A stretch of 64,000 nucleotides of DNA from Deltaproteobacteria bacterium (lineage in GTDB: Bacteria; Myxococcota_A; Polyangia; Polyangiales; Houyiibacteriaceae): contig JAXMNT010000017.1 of assembly GCA_034670305.1 (NCBI GenBank), positions 64,001-128,000 of the forward strand. The letters run 5' to 3'. Shown in pieces: positions 1,477-57,374 of this stretch (the first letter of the stretch is position 1; the number at the start of each line of letters is the position of its first letter). Under the pieces are notes generated by a model, which saw nothing but the letters and a program-made list of their open reading frames with translations, did not search any database and was not told the origin of the DNA. The translations under genes and the position numbers were made by a program.

Positions 1477-4122
1477 GTGAAGAAGCCCATCCCATTCGGC
1501 AAATACTTGCTGCTCGAACGCGTGAACGTCGGCGGCATGGCGGAGGTCTTCAAAGCGAAGGCATTCGGGGTGGAGGGCTTCGAGCGCCTGGTCGCTGTTA
1601 AGCGGATTCTCCCGTCGATTGCGGAGGATCAAGAGTTCATCGAGATGTTCGTCGACGAAGCGAAAATCGCCGTCGAGCTCACGCACGCGAACATCGCGCA
1701 CATCTTCGACCTCGGAAAAGTCGCCGACAGCTACTACATCGCGATGGAGTTCGTGCGTGGCAAAGACACCCGCGCGATCTTCGACCGGGTGCGCAAACGG
1801 GGCGAGACGATCCCCGTTCCGATGGCTTGCTACACCATCATGAAGGTCTGCGAGGGCCTCGACTACGCGCACAACAAGAAGGGCAGCAGTGGCCGGCACC
1901 TGAACCTCGTGCACCGCGATGTCTCCCCGCAGAACCTGCTCATCTCGTACGACGGCGAGATCAAGCTCATCGACTTCGGAATCGCCAAGGCGGCGAACAA
2001 AGCGAGCAAGACGCAGGCGGGCATCCTCAAAGGCAAGTTCGGCTACATGTCGCCGGAGCAGGTGCGCGGTCTGCCGCTCGATCGCCGCAGCGACGTGTTC
2101 GCAGTGGGCATCTGCCTCTACGAGCTGTTGACCGGCGAGCGTCTCTTCGTTGGGGAGAGCGACTTCTCCACTTTGGAGAAGGTACGCAACGTCGAGATCA
2201 TGCCCCCGAGCACCTACAACCGGAAGATCCCGGAAGAGCTCGAGCAGATCGTTCTGAAGGCGCTCGCGAAGGACGTCGACGACCGGTACCAGACCGCGAT
2301 GGACCTGCACGACGACCTGCAGTCCTTCATGTACACGAGCGGCAACTTCTTCGCCCGCAAGGACCTTGCGGCGTACATGCGCAAGGCCTTCCAGGACGAG
2401 ATCACCCGCGAAGAAGCGCGCGACGAGCAGTACGCGAAGATCAAAGCGCGGGACCCCGTCTCAGGACTCGACGCGTTCAGCGACATTCCCTCGCGGCGCG
2501 AGGCCAAGGGCGCCGCACCACCGCCGCCCCCACCGGCGGGCAACGTCTCGAAAGCGCCGCCGCCTCCCCCGAAGCCGCGACCGAAGGCGACCCTCATGGG
2601 CATCGGTCAGCAAGGCCTCGGCAGTCTTCCGCCCGTGCCGCCTCCCCGCGCGAGCCTCGGCCCTTCGGTCCCCCCGCCGCCTCCGCGCGTGAGCGCACCC
2701 GCCGCGACCCCGCCGCCTGGCCCCGAACTCGACATGGACTGGGACGACGACGAACTCGCCACCCAGATCTACGACAGCCCACCGATCACGGCCGCGGAGC
2801 CCGCGGTTCACGCACCGCTGAGTGCAGTGGCGACCCAGGTGCCCACGCCCGCGCCGGTCGGCGCGCCGAGTCCCTTCGACCCCCAACCCGCGCAGCCGGA
2901 TCCATTCGGGCCGGGCCCTGCCGCGCCCCTTGGGGTGCCGAGCGGTGCGCCGAGTCCCTTCGACGACCTCGGCGGTCCCAAAGCGCCCGTCGTGCCGGAG
3001 CCGACCTCGGTCACGTCACGCCCTTCGCGGGAAGGTGGCTCGAACATCGGGCTGCTCGTGACCATCGGGGTCGTGTTGTTGCTGGCACTCGGCGGAGGCG
3101 CCTGGCTTCTGCTTCGTCCAGCGGACCCCGGCACGATTCAGTTCACCACGAGCCCAACCGATCCCGTCGTCATCTTCGACGAACAACCGGTGCAGGCCAC
3201 CTCGAGCCCGTTCGTCATTCCGAACGTCTCGCCCGGCGAGATTCACCTCATCGAGGTCCGCAAGACCGGCTTCCGCACCTGGTCGACCCAGGTCACCTTG
3301 CAGCCGGGGCAGGCGCTCCAACTCGCGCGGGTCGAGCTCGTACCCGAAGAGGGCACGCCCGCCGTCGGCACCGGCGGCTTCGTCGTGAGCAGCGTTCCCC
3401 CAGGGGCACGGGTCACCGTCGACGGCCAGCCGCGCGGCACCACACCGGTCACCGTCGATGGTCTGCCGCCCGGTCCGCATCAGCTCCGGGTCGAAGCGGA
3501 TGGACGCGCGGCCAACGAGCAGACCGTGCAGGTCGTCGCGGGCGCCGCGACACCGCTTCCGCCGATCGCCCTTGGTGCGAGCAACGTGACGGTGCGCTTC
3601 ACCTCCGATCCTTCGGGTGCGCGTGTGAGCCTCGTGCGGGGTTCAGAAGTGCGCCGGGTGGGGACCACCCCGACCGTGTTCGATGTCGACCAGTCGGGCG
3701 GCGCCTGGACCGTCGAGATGACGCGCAATGGGTACGACACCTGGGAAGAGCCGCTGAGCATTCCTGCGGGCCAGGCCGTGCACAGCGTCGAAGCCGAACT
3801 CGAGCGCACCGAAGTCGCCAGCAACGGCGGTGGCGGGACCCGCGTGATGCGCATGGTCGTGCGCATGGACCCCGTGATGATGGAAGAGGCCATGGGCGGC
3901 GGCGGCGGCTTCGGCACGCTGCGCCTCAACTCGCGTCCCTGGTCGGAAGTCAGCATCGATGGCCGGAGCGTGGGCAACACGCCGCAGATGAACCTCCGCC
4001 TCAGCGCCGGTTCGCACCGCGTGACGCTCGTGAACCCGGAGTTCAACATCCGGCACAACATCACCGTGAACATCACGGCGAACGAGACGACCACCCGCAT
4101 CGTCACGCTCCCGACCAACTAG
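1477..4122 (+). CDS. Membrane Hanks-type Ser/Thr protein kinase with C-terminal PEGA domains
   Basis: GGMAEV, VAVK, HRDVSPQN, DFG and GKFGYMSPE motifs. Pro-rich linker, one TM helix, repeated S.P.GA.V.VDG...G.TP PEGA motifs. Confidence 0.95.
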   Translation: MKKPIPFGKYLLLERVNVGGMAEVFKAKAFGVEGFERLVAVKRILPSIAEDQEFIEMFVDEAKIAVELTHANIAHIFDLGKVADSYYIAMEFVRGKDTRAIFDRVRKRGETIPVPMACYTIMKVCEGLDYAHNKKGSSGRHLNLVHRDVSPQNLLISYDGEIKLIDFGIAKAANKASKTQAGILKGKFGYMSPEQVRGLPLDRRSDVFAVGICLYELLTGERLFVGESDFSTLEKVRNVEIMPPSTYNRKIPEELEQIVLKALAKDVDDRYQTAMDLHDDLQSFMYTSGNFFARKDLAAYMRKAFQDEITREEARDEQYAKIKARDPVSGLDAFSDIPSRREAKGAAPPPPPPAGNVSKAPPPPPKPRPKATLMGIGQQGLGSLPPVPPPRASLGPSVPPPPPRVSAPAATPPPGPELDMDWDDDELATQIYDSPPITAAEPAVHAPLSAVATQVPTPAPVGAPSPFDPQPAQPDPFGPGPAAPLGVPSGAPSPFDDLGGPKAPVVPEPTSVTSRPSREGGSNIGLLVTIGVVLLLALGGGAWLLLRPADPGTIQFTTSPTDPVVIFDEQPVQATSSPFVIPNVSPGEIHLIEVRKTGFRTWSTQVTLQPGQALQLARVELVPEEGTPAVGTGGFVVSSVPPGARVTVDGQPRGTTPVTVDGLPPGPHQLRVEADGRAANEQTVQVVAGAATPLPPIALGASNVTVRFTSDPSGARVSLVRGSEVRRVGTTPTVFDVDQSGGAWTVEMTRNGYDTWEEPLSIPAGQAVHSVEAELERTEVASNGGGGTRVMRMVVRMDPVMMEEAMGGGGGFGTLRLNSRPWSEVSIDGRSVGNTPQMNLRLSAGSHRVTLVNPEFNIRHNITVNITANETTTRIVTLPTN

Positions 4123-50179: not shown

Positions 50180-50510
50180 AGTCGGCTTCACGGTCAGCCT
50201 CGGGATGGGCGTCGGCTTCGGCTTCGGCGTCGGCCTCGGCTTCGGGGTTTCGGCTTCGGGGTCGGCTTCGGTCTCGGCTTCGGCGTCGGCTTCGGCGTCG
50301 GCTTCGAGGTCGGCTTCGGCTTCGGGGTCGGCTTCGGGGTCGGCTTCGGGGTCGGCTTCGGGGTCGGCTTCGGGGTCGGCTTCGGGGTCGGCTTCGGGGT
50401 CGGCTTTGGGGTCGGCTTCGGGGTCGGCTTCGGGGTCGGCTTCGGGGTCGGCTTCGGCGTCGGACTCGGCTTCGGCCTCGGGATCGGCTTCGGCTTCGGC
50501 CTCGGACTTC
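50180..50510 (-). repeat. GCCGAA/GCCGACCCCGAA array
   Basis: Direct reading. Confidence 0.95.
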
Positions 50511-50513
50511 TGA

Positions 50514-50660
50514 GCCCGACTCACCCGTGATCACGCCTGACTCACCCATGATCACGCCTGACTCACCCATGATCACGCCTGACTCACCCATGATCACGCC
50601 TGACTCACCCATGATCACGCCTGACTCACCCGTGATCACGCCTGACTCACCCGTGATCAC
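50514..50660. repeat. Seven tandem 21-bp repeats GCC(T/C)GACTCACCC(A/G)TGATCAC
   Basis: Direct reading; 7 x 21 bp. Confidence 0.97.
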
Positions 50661-50684
50661 GGACGATTCCGGCCATTTCCAATC

Positions 50685-50728: not shown

Positions 50729-51178
50729 ATGAAGCTCAGCAACAAGAGTCGATACGGCGTGCGCGCCATGTTCGACATCGCGTTTCACAACGACGGCAAA
50801 CCCACCCAGGTGCGGACCATCGCCGAGCGTCAGGCCATCCCGCCCCGCTTCCTCGAGCAGATCTTCCAGGATTTGAAACGCGCTGGGCTCGTGACCAGCA
50901 AGCGCGGCCCACGCGGCGGGTACGCGCTCTCCCGAGACCCGGACACGATCCACATCGGCGATGTCATTCGGGCGCTCGAAGGCGAGATCCGCCTGACCGG
51001 CGACGAAGCCGCTGGGGGAGACGCGATGAGCCGCGCCATCACCGACGGGGTGTTGACCGAACTCGCGTCACGCATCGACCAAGTGCTCGACGAACTCAGC
51101 CTGCGCGACCTCTGCGAACGCGGCGAATCCGAAGGGGTTCGACGCCGCCCGCCGAGGCGCTACGTGTACAGCATCTGA
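50729..51178 (+). CDS. Rrf2-family regulator (CymR-like, lacks the IscR Cys triad)
   Basis: RYGVRAM.DIA, IAERQ.IP..FLEQIF..LKRAGLV.S.RGP.GGY.L; only one Cys. Confidence 0.93.
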   Translation: MKLSNKSRYGVRAMFDIAFHNDGKPTQVRTIAERQAIPPRFLEQIFQDLKRAGLVTSKRGPRGGYALSRDPDTIHIGDVIRALEGEIRLTGDEAAGGDAMSRAITDGVLTELASRIDQVLDELSLRDLCERGESEGVRRRPPRRYVYSI

Positions 51179-51180
51179 CC

Positions 51181-52212
51181 ATGACCCTCTCCGCCGACAC
51201 CGAAGACACCGACCCTGGCTTGCCGAGGGACACCCTCCCCGATCCCGGCCCGCAAAAGCGCGCCCCCGTGGTCGAGAGCGTGCTCGATCTCATCGGACAG
51301 ACCCCGCTCATTCAGCTGCGCCGTGTGGTCTCGGGCGCGCAGGTCTGGGCGAAGGCCGAACACCTGAACCCCGGCGGTTCGGTGAAGGATCGGATCTGTC
51401 TCGCCATGATCGAGCGGGCCGAACGCGAGGGCATCCTGAAGCCCGGCATGACTGTGGTCGAACCCACCAGCGGCAACACCGGCATCGGCCTCGCGCTCGT
51501 CTGCGCCCGCAAGGGCTACAAGCTCGTGCTCACCATGCCGGCCAGCATGAGCCTCGAGCGGCGCGCTCTGCTCGAAGCCTACGGCGCCGAGATCGTGCTC
51601 ACCGATCCGAAGCGCATCATGGAAGGTGCGCTCGAAGCGGCGGAGAAGATCAAAGGCGAGCGCGGCGCGTTCATGCCGCAGCAGTTCGACAACCCCTCGA
51701 ACCCCGAGGCCCACGCCGAACACACCGCGCGCGAGATCATCGAAGCCTTCGAGGGCGAGACGCTTCACACCTTCGTCGCATCGGTCGGCACCGGCGGCAC
51801 GATCAGCGGCGTCGGCCGCGCGCTCAAAGCGCACTGGCCCGACATCCGCATCGTCGCCGTCGAACCCGAGGCCAGCCCAGTGCTCAGCGGCGGCCAAGCC
51901 GGCCCTTCGAAGATCCAAGGCCTCAACGCTGGGTTCATTCCGAAGAACTTCGACCGCACCCAGGTGGACGAGATCGTCCTCATCAGCGACGCCGACGCGT
52001 GGCGGATGAAAGAGCGGCTCGCGCGCGAAGAAGGCCTCCTCGTCGGGGTGAGCGCCGGCGCCAATGTGCACGTGTCCGCCGCCATCGCCGCCGAGCTGCC
52101 GCCCGAAGCGCACGTCGCCACCGTGTTGTGCGACACCGGCGAGCGCTACTTCAGTCTGGGCGTGCACTTCCAAGATCTCGACGACCCCAAGGGCGCGGAC
52201 CCGGGCGCATGA
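51181..52212 (+). CDS. cysK: Cysteine synthase A
   Basis: NPGGSVKDR, EPTSGNTG, QQFDNP.N, GTGGT, GP.KIQGL, DTGERY.S. Confidence 0.9.
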   Translation: MTLSADTEDTDPGLPRDTLPDPGPQKRAPVVESVLDLIGQTPLIQLRRVVSGAQVWAKAEHLNPGGSVKDRICLAMIERAEREGILKPGMTVVEPTSGNTGIGLALVCARKGYKLVLTMPASMSLERRALLEAYGAEIVLTDPKRIMEGALEAAEKIKGERGAFMPQQFDNPSNPEAHAEHTAREIIEAFEGETLHTFVASVGTGGTISGVGRALKAHWPDIRIVAVEPEASPVLSGGQAGPSKIQGLNAGFIPKNFDRTQVDEIVLISDADAWRMKERLAREEGLLVGVSAGANVHVSAAIAAELPPEAHVATVLCDTGERYFSLGVHFQDLDDPKGADPGA

Positions 52213-52916
52213 CGCGGACGTGGCTCATCGTCGGCGCGGGCGGCCTCGCGTGTGGTGCCGCCCGCGTGCTGCAGTCGGCTTTCCCGTCCGGCGCCTCCCG
52301 TCCTCGGTTCGTGGTCGTCGACGACGACGTCGTGGACGCCACCAACCTGCACCGGCAGACCCTCTACACCGCGTCCGACATCGGTGCGGCCAAAGCCGTA
52401 CTCGCTGCTCGCGCGCTCGGTGGTGAAGCCCGCCGGGAACGCTTTCTGCCGGACAACGCAGCCGCTCTGCTCGAAGGCGTCGATCTGGTGATCGAAGGCG
52501 CGGACAACTACGCGACGAAGTTTCTCGTCGCCGACGCCTGCGCGCTCGCCGGCATCGCGTGTGTGCATGCGGGTGCGGTCGGATGGAACGGCTGGGTGTT
52601 CGGGAGCCGGGGTCACGCGGCCAACCAGCCGTGTCTGCGCTGCGTGTTCGAAGACGTGCCTTCGGGTCCGGTGCAGACCTGCGAGAACGCCGGCGTGGTC
52701 GGTCCGGTCGTCGGTGTCGTCGGCGCGGTGCAAGGCCGCGACGCCCTCTCGGTGCGCCGCGAACCGGCACACCTCTGGAACTACCAGGGCCTGCGTGGCT
52801 CTCTTCGCCGCACCAGCGTACAACCCCGTCCCGACTGTCCTCACGCGCTCGGTTCCATCCGTGCGCTCGACCCCCACCGCTACGTCGCCCCCACCATTCA
52901 CGACGCGTGCAACTAG
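52209..52916 (+). CDS. ThiF/MoeB-family E1-like adenylyltransferase lacking the N-terminal helix
   Basis: Begins at the P-loop strand (IVGAGGL); D.D.V..TNLHRQ, K, DN, PCLRC, TC..AGVVG; no rhodanese domain. Confidence 0.9.
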   Translation: MTRTWLIVGAGGLACGAARVLQSAFPSGASRPRFVVVDDDVVDATNLHRQTLYTASDIGAAKAVLAARALGGEARRERFLPDNAAALLEGVDLVIEGADNYATKFLVADACALAGIACVHAGAVGWNGWVFGSRGHAANQPCLRCVFEDVPSGPVQTCENAGVVGPVVGVVGAVQGRDALSVRREPAHLWNYQGLRGSLRRTSVQPRPDCPHALGSIRALDPHRYVAPTIHDACN

Positions 52917-52942
52917 CCCGCGTCGAGCAACAGGAGACCCCC

Positions 52943-53218
52943 ATGGCCATCACACTTCGAATCCCCCCTGCCCTTCGTTCCCTCACCGGCGGCGACGCCG
53001 AGCTCGCGCTCGAAGGCGCCACGGTCGGCGCCCTCATCGACGCCGCCGAGAGCTCCTTCCCCGGCATCAAGGGACGCGTCTGCTCGGACGACGGAAAGGT
53101 GCTGCGTTTTGTGAACCTCTTCGTCGGCGAAGACGACATTCGCATGCTCGACGGACTCGAGACCCCGCTCAAAGAGGGCGACCAAGTCTCGATCATCCCG
53201 GCCATCGCAGGCGGCTGA
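52943..53218 (+). CDS. Ubiquitin-like sulfur carrier (CysO/MoaD/ThiS family)
   Basis: IP..LR..TGG, FVN.FV..EDIR...GL.TPL..GD.VSIIPAIAGG with C-terminal GG. Confidence 0.95.
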   Translation: MAITLRIPPALRSLTGGDAELALEGATVGALIDAAESSFPGIKGRVCSDDGKVLRFVNLFVGEDDIRMLDGLETPLKEGDQVSIIPAIAGG

Positions 53219-53222
53219 ACGG

Positions 53223-53492
53223 TTGACCCCTGAGGAGCGTCAGCGGTTCGTGCGACCCATGCTCGTTCGAGAGATCGGTGTGGCGGGACAAGAGCGGCTG
53301 CTCTCGGCCACCGTCCGGTTGTCCGGTCGGCCCGGCGACGAGACGGCCGCGCTCTACCTCGAGCGCGCTGGCGTGACGGTCGAAGTCGGAGCGCACATCC
53401 GCGTCGTGGAGTCGCCGGACGAGATCGTCGCCGGTGCGCTTCGCGCGGTCGAACAGATCAAAACCCTCCTCTCCCTCTCGGATCGATCATGA
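53223..53492 (+). CDS. Miniature ThiF/MoeB-like protein (N-terminal helix and interface elements, no P-loop)
   Basis: ERQRFVRPMLVREIGVAGQERL..ATV; AALYLERAGV; GALRAVEQIK.LL. Confidence 0.75.
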   Translation: MTPEERQRFVRPMLVREIGVAGQERLLSATVRLSGRPGDETAALYLERAGVTVEVGAHIRVVESPDEIVAGALRAVEQIKTLLSLSDRS

Positions 53493-54424
53493 GACACGGC
53501 AGACTCTCCAGCGTGTTCGACGCGGTCGGACAGACCCCGATGGTCCGGCTGCGCCGGATCGAACAAGAGACCCCCGGCGTCGAGATCTACCTGAAGCTCG
53601 AGTACATGAATCCGGGCGGTTCGGTGAAAGACCGACCGGCGCGGCAGATGATCCTCGACGCCGTCCAGGACGGCCGGTTCACCTCCGACAAGATCCTCAT
53701 CGACTCGACGAGCGGCAACACCGGCGTGGCCTACAGCCTATACGGCGCCGCGCTCGGGTACCGCGTTGCGCTCGTGATGCCGAGCAACGTCAGCAAGCCC
53801 CGCAAAGACATCACCCAGGCCTACGGGACCGAGCTCATCTTCAGTGATCCGATGCTCGGCAGCGACGGAGCGATCGAGAAGGTGAAGGAGATCGTGGCCG
53901 CGGATCCGGAGCGCTACTTCTACCCGGACCAGTACGCGAACCCCTCGAACCCGCGGGCGCATTACCTGGGCACGGGCGCGGAGATCCTGGACCAGGTCGG
54001 TGACCGCATCACCCACTTCGCCAGCGCGCTCGGCACGAGCGGCACCATGATGGGCACCACCCGCCGGCTGCGCGAACACAGCCGGCCGATCCAGTGCATC
54101 GCGCTCGAACCCGCCGAAGCGCTGCACGGCCTCGAAGGCCTCAAACACATGGCCTCGTCCATCGTGCCGCCCATCTACGACGCCACCACGTTCGATGAGG
54201 TCATGCCGGTGAAGACCGACGACGGCTGGGACATGTCGGAGCGGCTTGCGGCCCAAGAAGGCATCTACGTCGGCCACTCCACCGGGGCCAACGTCGCCGG
54301 CGCGGTCCAGGTCGCGAAGCGGCTCATCGCCCAGGGCGAAGAAGGCTGCGTGGTCACCATCGCGGCCGACCGGGGCGACCGGTACTTCGCCCCCATGAAG
54401 TGGGAGAAACACTATGTCTGGTAG
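53489..54424 (+). CDS. cysM: Cysteine synthase B-like (probably sulfur-carrier dependent)
   Basis: NPGGSVKDRPA, DSTSGNTG, DQY.NP.NP.AHY.GTG.EI, GTSGTMMG; lies between the sulfur carrier and JAMM genes. Confidence 0.8.
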   Translation: MRHGRLSSVFDAVGQTPMVRLRRIEQETPGVEIYLKLEYMNPGGSVKDRPARQMILDAVQDGRFTSDKILIDSTSGNTGVAYSLYGAALGYRVALVMPSNVSKPRKDITQAYGTELIFSDPMLGSDGAIEKVKEIVAADPERYFYPDQYANPSNPRAHYLGTGAEILDQVGDRITHFASALGTSGTMMGTTRRLREHSRPIQCIALEPAEALHGLEGLKHMASSIVPPIYDATTFDEVMPVKTDDGWDMSERLAAQEGIYVGHSTGANVAGAVQVAKRLIAQGEEGCVVTIAADRGDRYFAPMKWEKHYVW

Positions 54425-54453
54425 CCCTGCCCTGCGGTTTTCGGAGCCCCCTC

Positions 54454-54969
54454 ATGCCCGCTGACCACCCTCAGTTTCCAGGGCTGCCCTGGATCGCCGG
54501 CGACCTCGTGGTGTCGCGCGAAGTGATGGACGCGATCGAAGCCCACGCGCTTGCGGCCTATCCGAGCGAGTGCTGCGGCTTCGCGTTTGGTCCGGCGGAC
54601 CAGCCGCTCGTGATCGACGAAGAGATCGAAGTCGAGAACGAAGCCGACAAGTACCACGCGATGGATCCCGAGCAGTTCCCGCGCACGTCCAAGACCTACT
54701 TTCGGCTGAACCCGATGAAGGCGATGCGGACGCTCGACGAAGCGTCGGCCAAGGGGCGTCCGCTCAAGGTCATCTACCACTCGCACTGCGACGCAGGCGC
54801 GTACTTCTCCGGAGAAGACAGCGCGACGTTCGCCCAGGGCGAGATGCTGATGTGGCCGTGCGCGTTCCTCGTCGTCAGCGTCGTCGACGGCGCGGTCAAG
54901 GAACACAAACTCTGGGTGCACGAAGTCGGCACCAACAACTTCGTCGAAGCTCCGATCCGCATAGGCTGA
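54454..54969 (+). CDS. JAMM/MPN+ metallopeptidase (Mec-like)
   Basis: YPSECCG and YHSH.D..AYFS.ED (E..HxH..S..D). Confidence 0.92.
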   Translation: MPADHPQFPGLPWIAGDLVVSREVMDAIEAHALAAYPSECCGFAFGPADQPLVIDEEIEVENEADKYHAMDPEQFPRTSKTYFRLNPMKAMRTLDEASAKGRPLKVIYHSHCDAGAYFSGEDSATFAQGEMLMWPCAFLVVSVVDGAVKEHKLWVHEVGTNNFVEAPIRIG

Positions 54970-55214
54970 GCGAAGCGAAGCCCCCGTGCCCGTGCCCTTG
55001 CCCCTGCCCTCGCCCTCGGTTTGATTGAGGGCGGCGGAAACCAACTCCGAAGCCGACCCCGAAGCCTTGAGCGAAGCGAACCGGCCTTGCCCCTGCCCTT
55101 GCCCCTGCCCTTGCCCTCGGTTTGATTGAGAGCGGTGGCGGAAGTTGCTGCCGTCCAATGCGAAGCCGAGGCCGACGCTGACCCCCGAACCCGACTCCGG
55201 ACCCCGAAGCCGAG
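54967..55214. repeat. Tandem ~100-bp REP-like doublet with GCCCTT/GCCCCT core
   Basis: TGAGCGAAGCGAA...(GCCC(C/T)T)n...CGGTTTGATTGAG at 54967 and 55068. Confidence 0.8.
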
Positions 55215-55941: not shown

Positions 55942-56048
55942 ACCGAAGCCGAAGCCGATCCCCGAAACGGATCCCGAAGCCGAAGCGGAAGCCGATCCCG
56001 AAGCCGATCCCAAAGCCGATCCCGTGAGCCGGGCGGACCCGAAGCCGG
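55942..56048 (+). repeat. GCCGAA/GATCCCGAA array
   Basis: Direct reading; in a divergent region. Confidence 0.85.
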
Positions 56049-56714: not shown

Positions 56715-56788
56715 TCGGCTTCGGGGTCGGCTTCGGCTTTCGGCGTCGGCTTCGGCTTCGGCGTCGGCTCCGGGGTCGGCTTCGGTCT
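56715..56788 (-). repeat. GCCGAA-type hexamer array
   Basis: Direct reading. Confidence 0.85.
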
Positions 56789-56857
56789 TCAACCACCCCA
56801 AACGCAGAAAATCGCCCTCACCGGATGGCGAGGACGACCTTCGAAGTACCGGAAGAA

Positions 56858-57259
56858 CTACTTCTTCTTCGGCTTCTGGGAGCGGATGACGTCTTCCGCA
56901 CCGTGCGAGCGGCTCGCGCGGAGGCGGGCCTTCTTGCCGCGCAGGTCGCGGAGGTAGTAGAGGCGCGCCTGGCGGACGTGGCCGCGGGCGGTGATCTCCA
57001 CCTTTTCGATGCGCGGCGAGTGCACCGGGAAGATGCGCTCGACGCCGACGCTGTAGGAGACCTTCCGGACGGTGAACGTCGCGCGGGAGCTCTCTCCACG
57101 GCGGCGGATCACGACGCCCTCGAAGACCTGGACACGCTCTTTCTCACCCTCACGGATGCGGAAGTGAACGCGGACGGTGTCACCAACCCGGAACTCGAGA
57201 ACGTCGGGGTTCAGCTGCGCGGATTCGATGGCGGTGATTTGGGGGACGGTGCTGCTCAT
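56858..57259 (-). CDS. rplS: 50S ribosomal protein L19
   Basis: [50 protein letters not shown]. Confidence 0.98.
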
Positions 57260-57374
57260 GGGACTGTCTTTGTTGGGGGCCCGCAAAGAGGAGGGGCCGG
57301 TTCGCGCAAAAGGTGCTGCGAGGGACGCGGTCCGTAGCATGGCCGGCCCGCGGTGCCAACCCGCTTTGTACCCC

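Follow-up and report, generated by a model that had tools for sequence, protein, structure and literature searches.

How does an activating enzyme (E1) of the ThiF/MoeB type complete its ATP site when its own chain lacks the segment that carries the arginine finger? In homodimeric ThiF and MoeB, N-terminal residues cross the dimer and place an Arg at the gamma-phosphate of the partner's ATP. The question is raised by a 64,000-nucleotide stretch of DNA from a Deltaproteobacteria bacterium of the Polyangiales (Houyiibacteriaceae; contig JAXMNT010000017.1, positions 64,001 to 128,000; hereafter the window), in which an operon around a ThiS-like sulfur carrier encodes a 235-residue catalytic E1 subunit without this N-terminus (the headless E1; 52209..52916, + strand) and an 89-residue degenerate E1 paralogue (the mini-E1; 53223..53492, + strand) that is recognised by partial E1 homology, synteny, its ratio of nonsynonymous to synonymous substitution rates (dN/dS) and its predicted fold. 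We consider it likely that the two proteins function together as a heteromeric E1 for the sulfur carrier, one subunit of which is minimal and inactive. A preliminary description of the window had already suggested an active E1 and an inactive, Arg-finger-bearing partner flanking their carrier, and this proposal now finds support in conservation, synteny, control loci, selection, the retained Arg, the predicted fold and the predicted complex.

The catalytic subunit matches the Pfam ThiF profile (PF00899) over positions 23–237 of 238 with 136.5 bits against a cut-off of 28.1. The NCBIfam MoeB and ThiF models align to it only from model position 25–46, and solved ThiF, MoeB and Uba4 only from their residue 32–37; because profiles and solved structures align only past this point, we take the protein to be without ca. 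30 N-terminal residues. It begins 5 residues ahead of its GAGGLA P-loop strand, the strand at which the preliminary description had it start, and is devoid of both the N-terminal Arg-finger helices (the segment of ThiF R11 and MoeB R14) and a rhodanese domain. The P-loop, NLHRQ, the Lys, the Asp-Asn pair, CLRC and the crossover-loop Cys158 are all retained. Across 9 orthologues, 65 columns are invariant and include G9, G11, G12, N46, R49, Q50, K62, D99 and N100, which align with Uba4, ThiF and MoeB; by this alignment and the accessible part of one published account (PMC13139853), R49 is the counterpart of ThiF R70 and MoeB R73. The crossover loop of this 235-residue chain is short, and there is neither a mobile catalytic Cys domain nor a ubiquitin-fold domain (UFD). 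Its first zinc motif is CLRC and its second, again as described before, CPHA, which turns out to be a minority variant: among 69 relatives with a complete C-terminus, the second motif reads CPLC in 33, CALC in 10, CPHA in 7 and CPHT in 1. A Cys lies within the last 14 residues in 51 of these 69 relatives, mostly as part of a conserved 'RY..x.C' tail in the orthologues, and His212 or the C-terminal Cys might act as a substitute, the Cys perhaps as the fourth zinc ligand, where CxxC became CPHA.

Another reading frame or an alternative start was rejected as a source of the absent head, given that the upstream in-frame stretch lies inside cysK, and a search of every frame up to 2.5 kb upstream of the E1 turned up no head-like segment in any of 80 E1-anchored loci. 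The same contig carries a 404-residue, head-bearing MoeB/MoeZ-like E1 (51267–52007 of the contig) about 12 kb before the start of the window, and the three further ThiF-family genes elsewhere in the genome all begin at profile position 1–11.

What the mini-E1 shares with E1 enzymes is largely their N-terminal part. Its residues 2–52 match the MoeB, ThiF and MoeZ models at positions ~1–56, all under curated cut-offs (best NCBIfam score 30.5 bits against a cut-off of 449); there is no Pfam match at E ≤ 0.1, and 0 of 9 family members reach a Pfam cut-off. The profile of the mini family aligns with ThiF residues 3–56 and, weakly (6.6 bits), with residues 198–218, the 'GTLQALEAIK' helix. The protein keeps the N-terminal helices with R8 and R11 (the latter aligned with ThiF R11), the first beta-alpha-beta unit minus its P-loop and a C-terminal helix of the dimer type (residues 65–82), and its sequence contains no Cys, no GxGxxG, no NLHRQ and no catalytic Asp. 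The preliminary description had seen the head segment and the terminal helix, together with the lack of GxGxxG, NLHRQ and Cys, and these features hold; it had placed the 89-residue open reading frame (ORF) two genes after the E1, but it is the next gene but one, with the ThiS gene (52943–53218) in between. In profile terms, the homologies of the two proteins are complementary, the E1 covering positions 23–237 and the mini-E1 positions ~1–56 plus ThiF 198–218. In full-length E1s of the same phylum (loci L040, L042, L043 and L045), the mini profile matches the N-terminus and a later helix within one ORF. Comparison of the mini-E1 with the headless E1 by hhalign gave no significant match (probability 0.15); the degenerate strand-helix region is all that the two chains have in common. 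The locus encodes two E1-fold units of which only one carries catalytic motifs, the composition of an asymmetric pair of an inactive and an active adenylation domain (IAD and AAD).

Two irregular copies were seen along the way. A 96%-identical 89-residue variant (P0001) differs at residues 2–5 (RRRA vs TPEE), perhaps through a small indel or a change of frame right at the gene start. In locus L004 (1480–1851; same record as L063), the frame of the mini-E1 continues into a perfect (PSLSTT)n repeat that extends to the end of the contig, probably an assembly break at this tandem repeat.

High-GC DNA holds many spurious ORFs, and an 89-residue frame with no Pfam family match could in principle be such a chance product or the decaying fragment of a duplicated E1 gene, a reading to which we give next to no credence. 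A word-index homologue search with the 89-residue protein retrieved 4 proteins only, and an exhaustive profile search was therefore used, which yielded 4784 representatives at E ≤ 0.001, with 397 still present at E ≤ 1e-10. The top 150 are all small proteins of 89–210 residues (median 126) that match the whole profile; the typical mini-E1 has ~120 residues, and the window's form is among the shortest. The neighbours of the protein in the ESM Atlas are clusters of 'hypothetical protein', commonest in Myxococcota. The mean column identity of the family is only ~34–38%, and R11 is kept in 149 of the 150 representatives and at 69 of 73 genome loci; in the same 224 aligned members, Q23, G50, G22, Y45, G71 and A75 are about as fixed. 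The reading frame is preserved through many indels, and dN/dS is below 1 in all 22 orthologue pairs compared (0.19–0.56, median 0.29), with synonymous sites near saturation and pairs that are not independent of each other. The E1 shows values of 0.09–0.31 (median 0.18) in the same pairs; a CysM value of 0.966 for L091/L100 was excluded, because L100 ends before cysM and the match is to the CysK paralogue. The ORF is a real, widespread gene under purifying selection. Its family size and dN/dS, together with the fixed genomic position and confident predicted fold described below, contradict the non-conserved, decaying fragment that would have spoken against the proposed pair.

If the two proteins belong together, they should be found together. 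We searched species genomes with the headless-E1 alignment as query and analysed the best 80 of 451 relatives, whose records are nearly all titled Myxococcota, Polyangiales, Sandaracinaceae, Polyangiaceae or by legacy delta-proteobacterial names, with few generic ones. A mini-E1 gene follows the ThiS gene, or the E1 gene directly, in 73 of these 80 loci, and six of the seven without it end at most 349 bp after the E1. Head-bearing E1s are absent from the set (0/80). In the window's own family, all 18 loci (the window counted) share the same gene order, mini-E1 included, and the mini-E1 also occurs in other families of the phylum. As a control, 40 loci from other families of the phylum were anchored on the ThiS-like carrier instead. 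Twelve of them have a head-bearing E1 (~400 residues or more) beside ThiS, none of which (0/12) is accompanied by a separate mini-E1; in 8 of the 11 loci with a headless E1, a mini-E1 follows ThiS (seven by profile and that of L144 by reading the ORFs). The remainder comprises 16 loci without a nearby E1 and the unclassified L157, where an 18-bit head-like match comes without E1 or head motif. Mini-E1 and head-bearing E1 are mutually exclusive in the control set, with minis only beside headless E1s. Co-occurrence across genomes, which the preliminary description had named as a check of its proposal, is thereby borne out.

The structure predicted for the mini-E1 alone, from 68 sequences, is confident (predicted local distance difference test score, pLDDT, 92.4; predicted TM-score, pTM, 0.83) and comprises helices 3–8, 10–14 and 19–27, strand 30–33, helix 39–48, strand 52–55 and helix 65–82. 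All top 14 Foldseek matches are ThiF, Uba4 or MoeB (query TM-score, TMq, 0.54–0.60; probability 0.97–1.00), further ones being PaaA, TcdA and the inactive subunits SAE1 and NAE1; on ThiF, 55 columns superpose at 1.6 Å. A complex was then predicted from the E1 alignment, the mini alignment and ATP in three runs with three controls; the preliminary description had proposed a multimer model of both proteins with the carrier. The interface score ipSAE reached 0.92 in each of the 3 runs against 0.00 for the best control, with at least 92% of contacts common to the runs and a partner pLDDT of at least 88. In the model, mini helix 62–80 lies against E1 residues 158–180 (the GVVGPVVGVVGAVQ helix), and mini residues 7–12, which include R8 and R11, touch E1 residues 44–51 (ATNLHRQT). 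The heterodimer is a prediction, and as predicted it has the geometry of an E1 homodimer in which the mini-E1 replaces the second protomer. Since ipSAE scores no ligand contacts, a contact of the mini Arg with ATP is one that we infer from the modelled arrangement. No clear enrichment of conserved residues in the predicted interface was apparent when the lists were compared by eye, and this comparison was not used.

One could still suppose that the mini-E1 serves another protein, be it a MoeZ-like full-length E1, CysM or the carrier, and that the headless E1 is an ordinary homodimer. Its gene does lie between the carrier gene and cysM, and the 404-residue head-bearing E1 is encoded on the same contig just outside the window. 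Yet operons with head-bearing E1s lack a mini-E1 (the 0/12 of the control set), and the interface that scores 0.92 against 0.00 is the dimer interface of E1 enzymes. Moreover, the E1 and the mini-E1 stay together where other genes of the operon are gone. Eight of the 80 loci have neither CysK nor CysM but keep Rrf2-E1-ThiS-mini-JAB. Versions of this kind occur in L053, L065, L066, L072, L086, L094 and L121, and also in L011; cysteine synthesis may not everywhere be the local task of the core module. Only E1 and mini-E1 are kept, without ThiS or CysM, in L083, L101 and L105. Because the pair persists in loci without CysK and CysM or without ThiS, E1-mini is the most persistent unit of the cluster. 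We therefore regard a different partner as quite improbable and continue with the headless E1 as the partner of the mini-E1. The three E1-mini loci represent a second headless-E1 subfamily (L083, 2351–3590; also L101 and L105) with an intact CPSC zinc motif, a 115-residue mini-E1 directly after the E1 and no JAB nearby; in L083, the pair sits beside rplS-trmD and a Ser/Thr kinase gene. In another locus (L061, 1558–5333), the matches to CysK, CysM and JAB are fragmented, each across two or three frames, while mini-E1 and E1 are intact, which suggests assembly indel errors rather than pseudogenes.

How strongly the E1 depends on its partner is a question on which several observations weigh against our reading. 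In L095, the 1207 bp that follow the E1 hold no mini-E1, and in L152, L154 and L155, 3 of the 11 headless control loci, ThiS is directly followed by CysM. No head motif is present within ±4.5 kb in these three loci, and a profile search of five genomes found no small-ORF mini match at E ≤ 0.05 in theirs, returning only the N-termini of ~400-residue E1s; this blank is weak evidence, because the same search missed the divergent mini-E1 of L144. R8 of the mini-E1 is replaced by Leu in 33 of the 150 representatives, and the mini-E1 evolves faster than its neighbours, with a dN/dS above the E1 value in all 22 pairs. The Arg fingers of ThiF and MoeB are themselves reported as not essential, and E. 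coli TcdA as lacking one, in the accessible part of PMC13139853. The score of the complex also calls for reserve: among the solved complexes of the calibration set, 58 of 80 reached the same mark, as did 2 of the 110 mismatched pairs; a job with its own alignments and an ATP ligand differs from this set, and ipSAE is possibly inflated, reflecting likeness and not binding, because the complex resembles solved ThiF/MoeB homodimers, an effect of which the prediction tool itself warns. To say that the mini-E1 supplies an essential Arg would exceed the data, because of the headless loci without a mini-E1 and the reportedly non-essential finger. Locus L095 itself (2342–3232) is part of a lower-GC Sandaracinaceae record, belongs to the headless-E1 subfamily of L083 and has a convergent gene downstream.

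These observations give some room to the idea that the mini-E1 binds the E1 merely as an auxiliary or regulatory cap that stabilises the monomer, sets half-of-sites behaviour or inhibits by blocking homodimerisation, with the headless E1 active alone. The three headless-E1 operons and L095 with no detectable mini-E1, the Arg finger reported as non-essential in PMC13139853, as far as that source is accessible, and a constraint on the mini-E1 that is looser than that on the E1 in 22 of 22 pairs are all what such a cap would lead one to expect. A pure cap would have no need of R11, though, which is nearly invariant (149/150 and 69/73) in a family with so low a mean column identity, nor does it fit with minis occurring only beside headless E1s (8/11 against 0/12). 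On balance we think a cap unlikely and prefer a heteromeric E1 in which the mini-E1 takes part in completing the active site.

A catalytic need for the mini-E1, like every chemical step of the following scheme, is something that we infer. The 235-residue subunit holds all catalytic elements of a ThiF/MoeB adenylation domain minus the first ~30 residues, and the 89-residue subunit would be the remnant of a second E1 copy, consisting of the helix pair, a beta-alpha-beta scaffold without P-loop and the helix at the dimer axis. The mini-E1 would occupy the place of the second protomer on the catalytic subunit, with its helix 65–82 packed on E1 helix 158–180 and its residues 7–12 on the NLHRQ loop (E1 44–51), so that the enzyme would be asymmetric, with one copy of each chain and one ATP site to which the mini-E1 contributes in trans. 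It would activate the ThiS-like carrier by adenylation of the C-terminal Gly, and sulfur would then reach the carrier from a separate donor, as the E1 has no rhodanese domain. CysM would then make a carrier-Cys adduct from which the JAMM peptidase would free cysteine.

Where might such a small subunit come from? In sister families, the slot after ThiS and a gene for a NIL-domain protein holds a 147–159-residue 'half-E1' with a head, a destroyed P-loop and roughly one half of a Rossmann fold, which passes the Pfam ThiF cut-off over positions 1–96 (29.4 and 44.2 bits) and has a headless E1 1.8–2 kb upstream on the same contig. The gene order in these loci (L038, 1–3240; L044, 1–3171; L133; L134) is headless E1-ThrC-like pyridoxal phosphate (PLP) enzyme-ThiS-NIL-'half-E1'-CysM-JAB; the NIL-domain protein has 81–87 residues, and neither NIL nor ThrC-like genes are present in the window's operon. 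The graded sizes point to a second E1 copy that would have been progressively reduced. The mini-E1 does not look like a split-off N-terminus, because it duplicates the strand-helix and the dimer helix that are still present in the catalytic chain. Myxococcota may on this evidence have independently made an obligate asymmetric E1 whose inactive subunit was whittled down via ~160 and ~120 residues to the ~90 that are needed in trans, a scenario whose chances we see as evenly balanced.

The operon that houses the pair consists of seven co-directional, mostly overlapping genes that span 50.7–55.0 kb of the window on the + strand in the order Rrf2–CysK–E1–ThiS/CysO–mini–CysM–JAB. The Rrf2-family transcription regulator (50729..51178; Pfam Rrf2, 126.7 bits) is the first gene of the conserved cluster and sits before CysK or E1 in most related loci. 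It is followed by a CysK-type cysteine synthase, a PLP enzyme (51181..52212; TIGR01139 cysK, 383.5 bits, above the cut-off of 350.95), and, after the E1, by the ThiS/MoaD-type, CysO-like sulfur-carrier protein with C-terminal Gly-Gly (52943..53218; Pfam ThiS, 50.1 bits), which has an AGGAG ribosome-binding site upstream of its gene and is 52–81% identical among relatives. The mini-E1 gene starts with TTG 4 nt past the ThiS stop, and ATGA overlaps occur at two junctions, cysK/E1 and mini/cysM; going by this layout, the mini-E1 gene is translationally coupled. The CysM-type PLP enzyme (53489..54424; Pfam PALP, 208.4 bits) is 65–82% identical in relatives and scores 328.9 bits with TIGR01138 cysM, below the equivalog cut-off of 394.2; it is predicted to use the carrier thiocarboxylate. 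Last comes a Mec-like JAMM/Prok-JAB metalloprotease (54400..54969; Pfam Prok-JAB, 66.3 bits), whose true start may be a later ATG because relatives align from residue ~20–31; the tblastn alignments as a whole begin at query residue 11–31. A carrier with Gly-Gly, a JAMM peptidase and a CysM-type PLP enzyme are all found in this one cluster, and no gene for an E2-like conjugating enzyme appeared in it in the window's ORF list or a Pfam scan; the gene set fits cysteine synthesis of the CysO/CysM/Mec type, not protein conjugation.

The intergenic gaps around the operon hold GC-rich tandem arrays (50208–50661, 55085–55117, 55943–56024 and 56715–56790), with a 12-nt unit repeated 24 times and a 21-nt unit repeated 7 times upstream of the Rrf2 gene and units of 6, 12 or 18 nt in the other gaps. 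On both strands, these arrays give rise to long ORFs that are spurious and translate as (EADP)n or (GFGV)n. The rplS gene lies at 56858–57262, 3.4 kb downstream of the mini-E1 gene.

If our reading is true, the transition from symmetric to asymmetric E1s would have happened more than once, including in a housekeeping sulfur pathway, and could proceed by shrinking one paralogue to fewer than 100 residues. The mini-E1 would then be a natural answer to the question of which parts of a second protomer an E1 active site needs, a minimal 'inactive adenylation domain' and a living model for the origin of the heterodimeric or pseudo-dimeric E1s of eukaryotes. The graded series of 160, 120 and 89 residues offers a usable biochemical test of the parts needed, and L152, L154 and L155 are natural test cases for a headless E1 working alone. 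Aside from mechanism, the analysis names a sizeable unannotated family, with its 397 representatives at E ≤ 1e-10 and without a Pfam model of its own, and amends what is probably the current label of these proteins, 'hypothetical' or truncated MoeB.

A search of the full-text literature, with most subscription journals outside its scope, found no description of such a two-gene mini-E1 pair, and the closest known systems each share some of its features. The accessible part of PMC12355090 presents ThiF and MoeB as homodimeric enzymes that have two active sites, and that of PMC13139853 names ThiF R11 and MoeB R14 as the trans Arg finger that is given to the neighbouring subunit. The adenylation fold and motifs of these homodimers (PDB 1ZUD/1ZFN and 1JW9) and the equivalent Arg are the same here, with the first ~55 residues of the mini-E1 superposing, whereas the N-terminal helices acting in trans are on a separate 89-residue chain without P-loop or catalytic residues and the predicted pair has one active site instead of two. 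The mycobacterial CysO-CysM-Mec system with MoeZR as its E1 (PMC3227635, accessible part) likewise combines a Gly-Gly carrier with a CysM-type enzyme and a JAMM peptidase, and operon type 4c of Iyer et al. 2006, given as 'ThiS + E1 + JAB + cysteine synthase' in the accessible part of PMC1779556, resembles the window's cluster as well. Both use as E1 a single full-length polypeptide that includes a fused rhodanese domain, whereas the window's E1 has neither rhodanese domain nor head and its cluster adds the mini-E1, CysK and the Rrf2 regulator.

Asymmetric E1s occur in eukaryotes, where the active subunit of NAE1-UBA3 and SAE1-SAE2 similarly has as its partner an inactive chain of E1 fold bearing the N-terminal Arg. 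The inactive partner has 89–160 residues here and more than 300 there, and the bacterial pair has no Cys domain, UFD or E2, would act on a sulfur carrier and presumably originated independently within Myxococcota. Yeast Tcd1-Tcd2, too, comprises two ThiF-fold paralogues of which one gives an Arg finger to the site of the other; both are full-size, their substrate is tRNA t6A and not a ubiquitin-like carrier, and the R59A mutation lost only 26% of the product ratio, going by the accessible part of PMC13139853. Among bacteria, the known E1-like proteins homodimerise with the exception of BilD, according to the accessible part of PMC10557695. BilD of the Bil antiviral systems is an asymmetric E1 in which Arg9 of the IAD completes the single active site, and because it has a fused IAD-AAD (same source, same part), the window's pair is not the sole asymmetric bacterial E1. 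BilD is one chain with a full-size IAD, a CYS domain and an E2 and serves defence (ibid., accessible part), whereas the pair in the window is encoded by two genes of a metabolic operon and its IAD is minimal. What sets the window's pair apart is an inactive unit that exists as a separate chain of 89–160 residues, in sulfur-carrier metabolism and with no Cys domain or E2.

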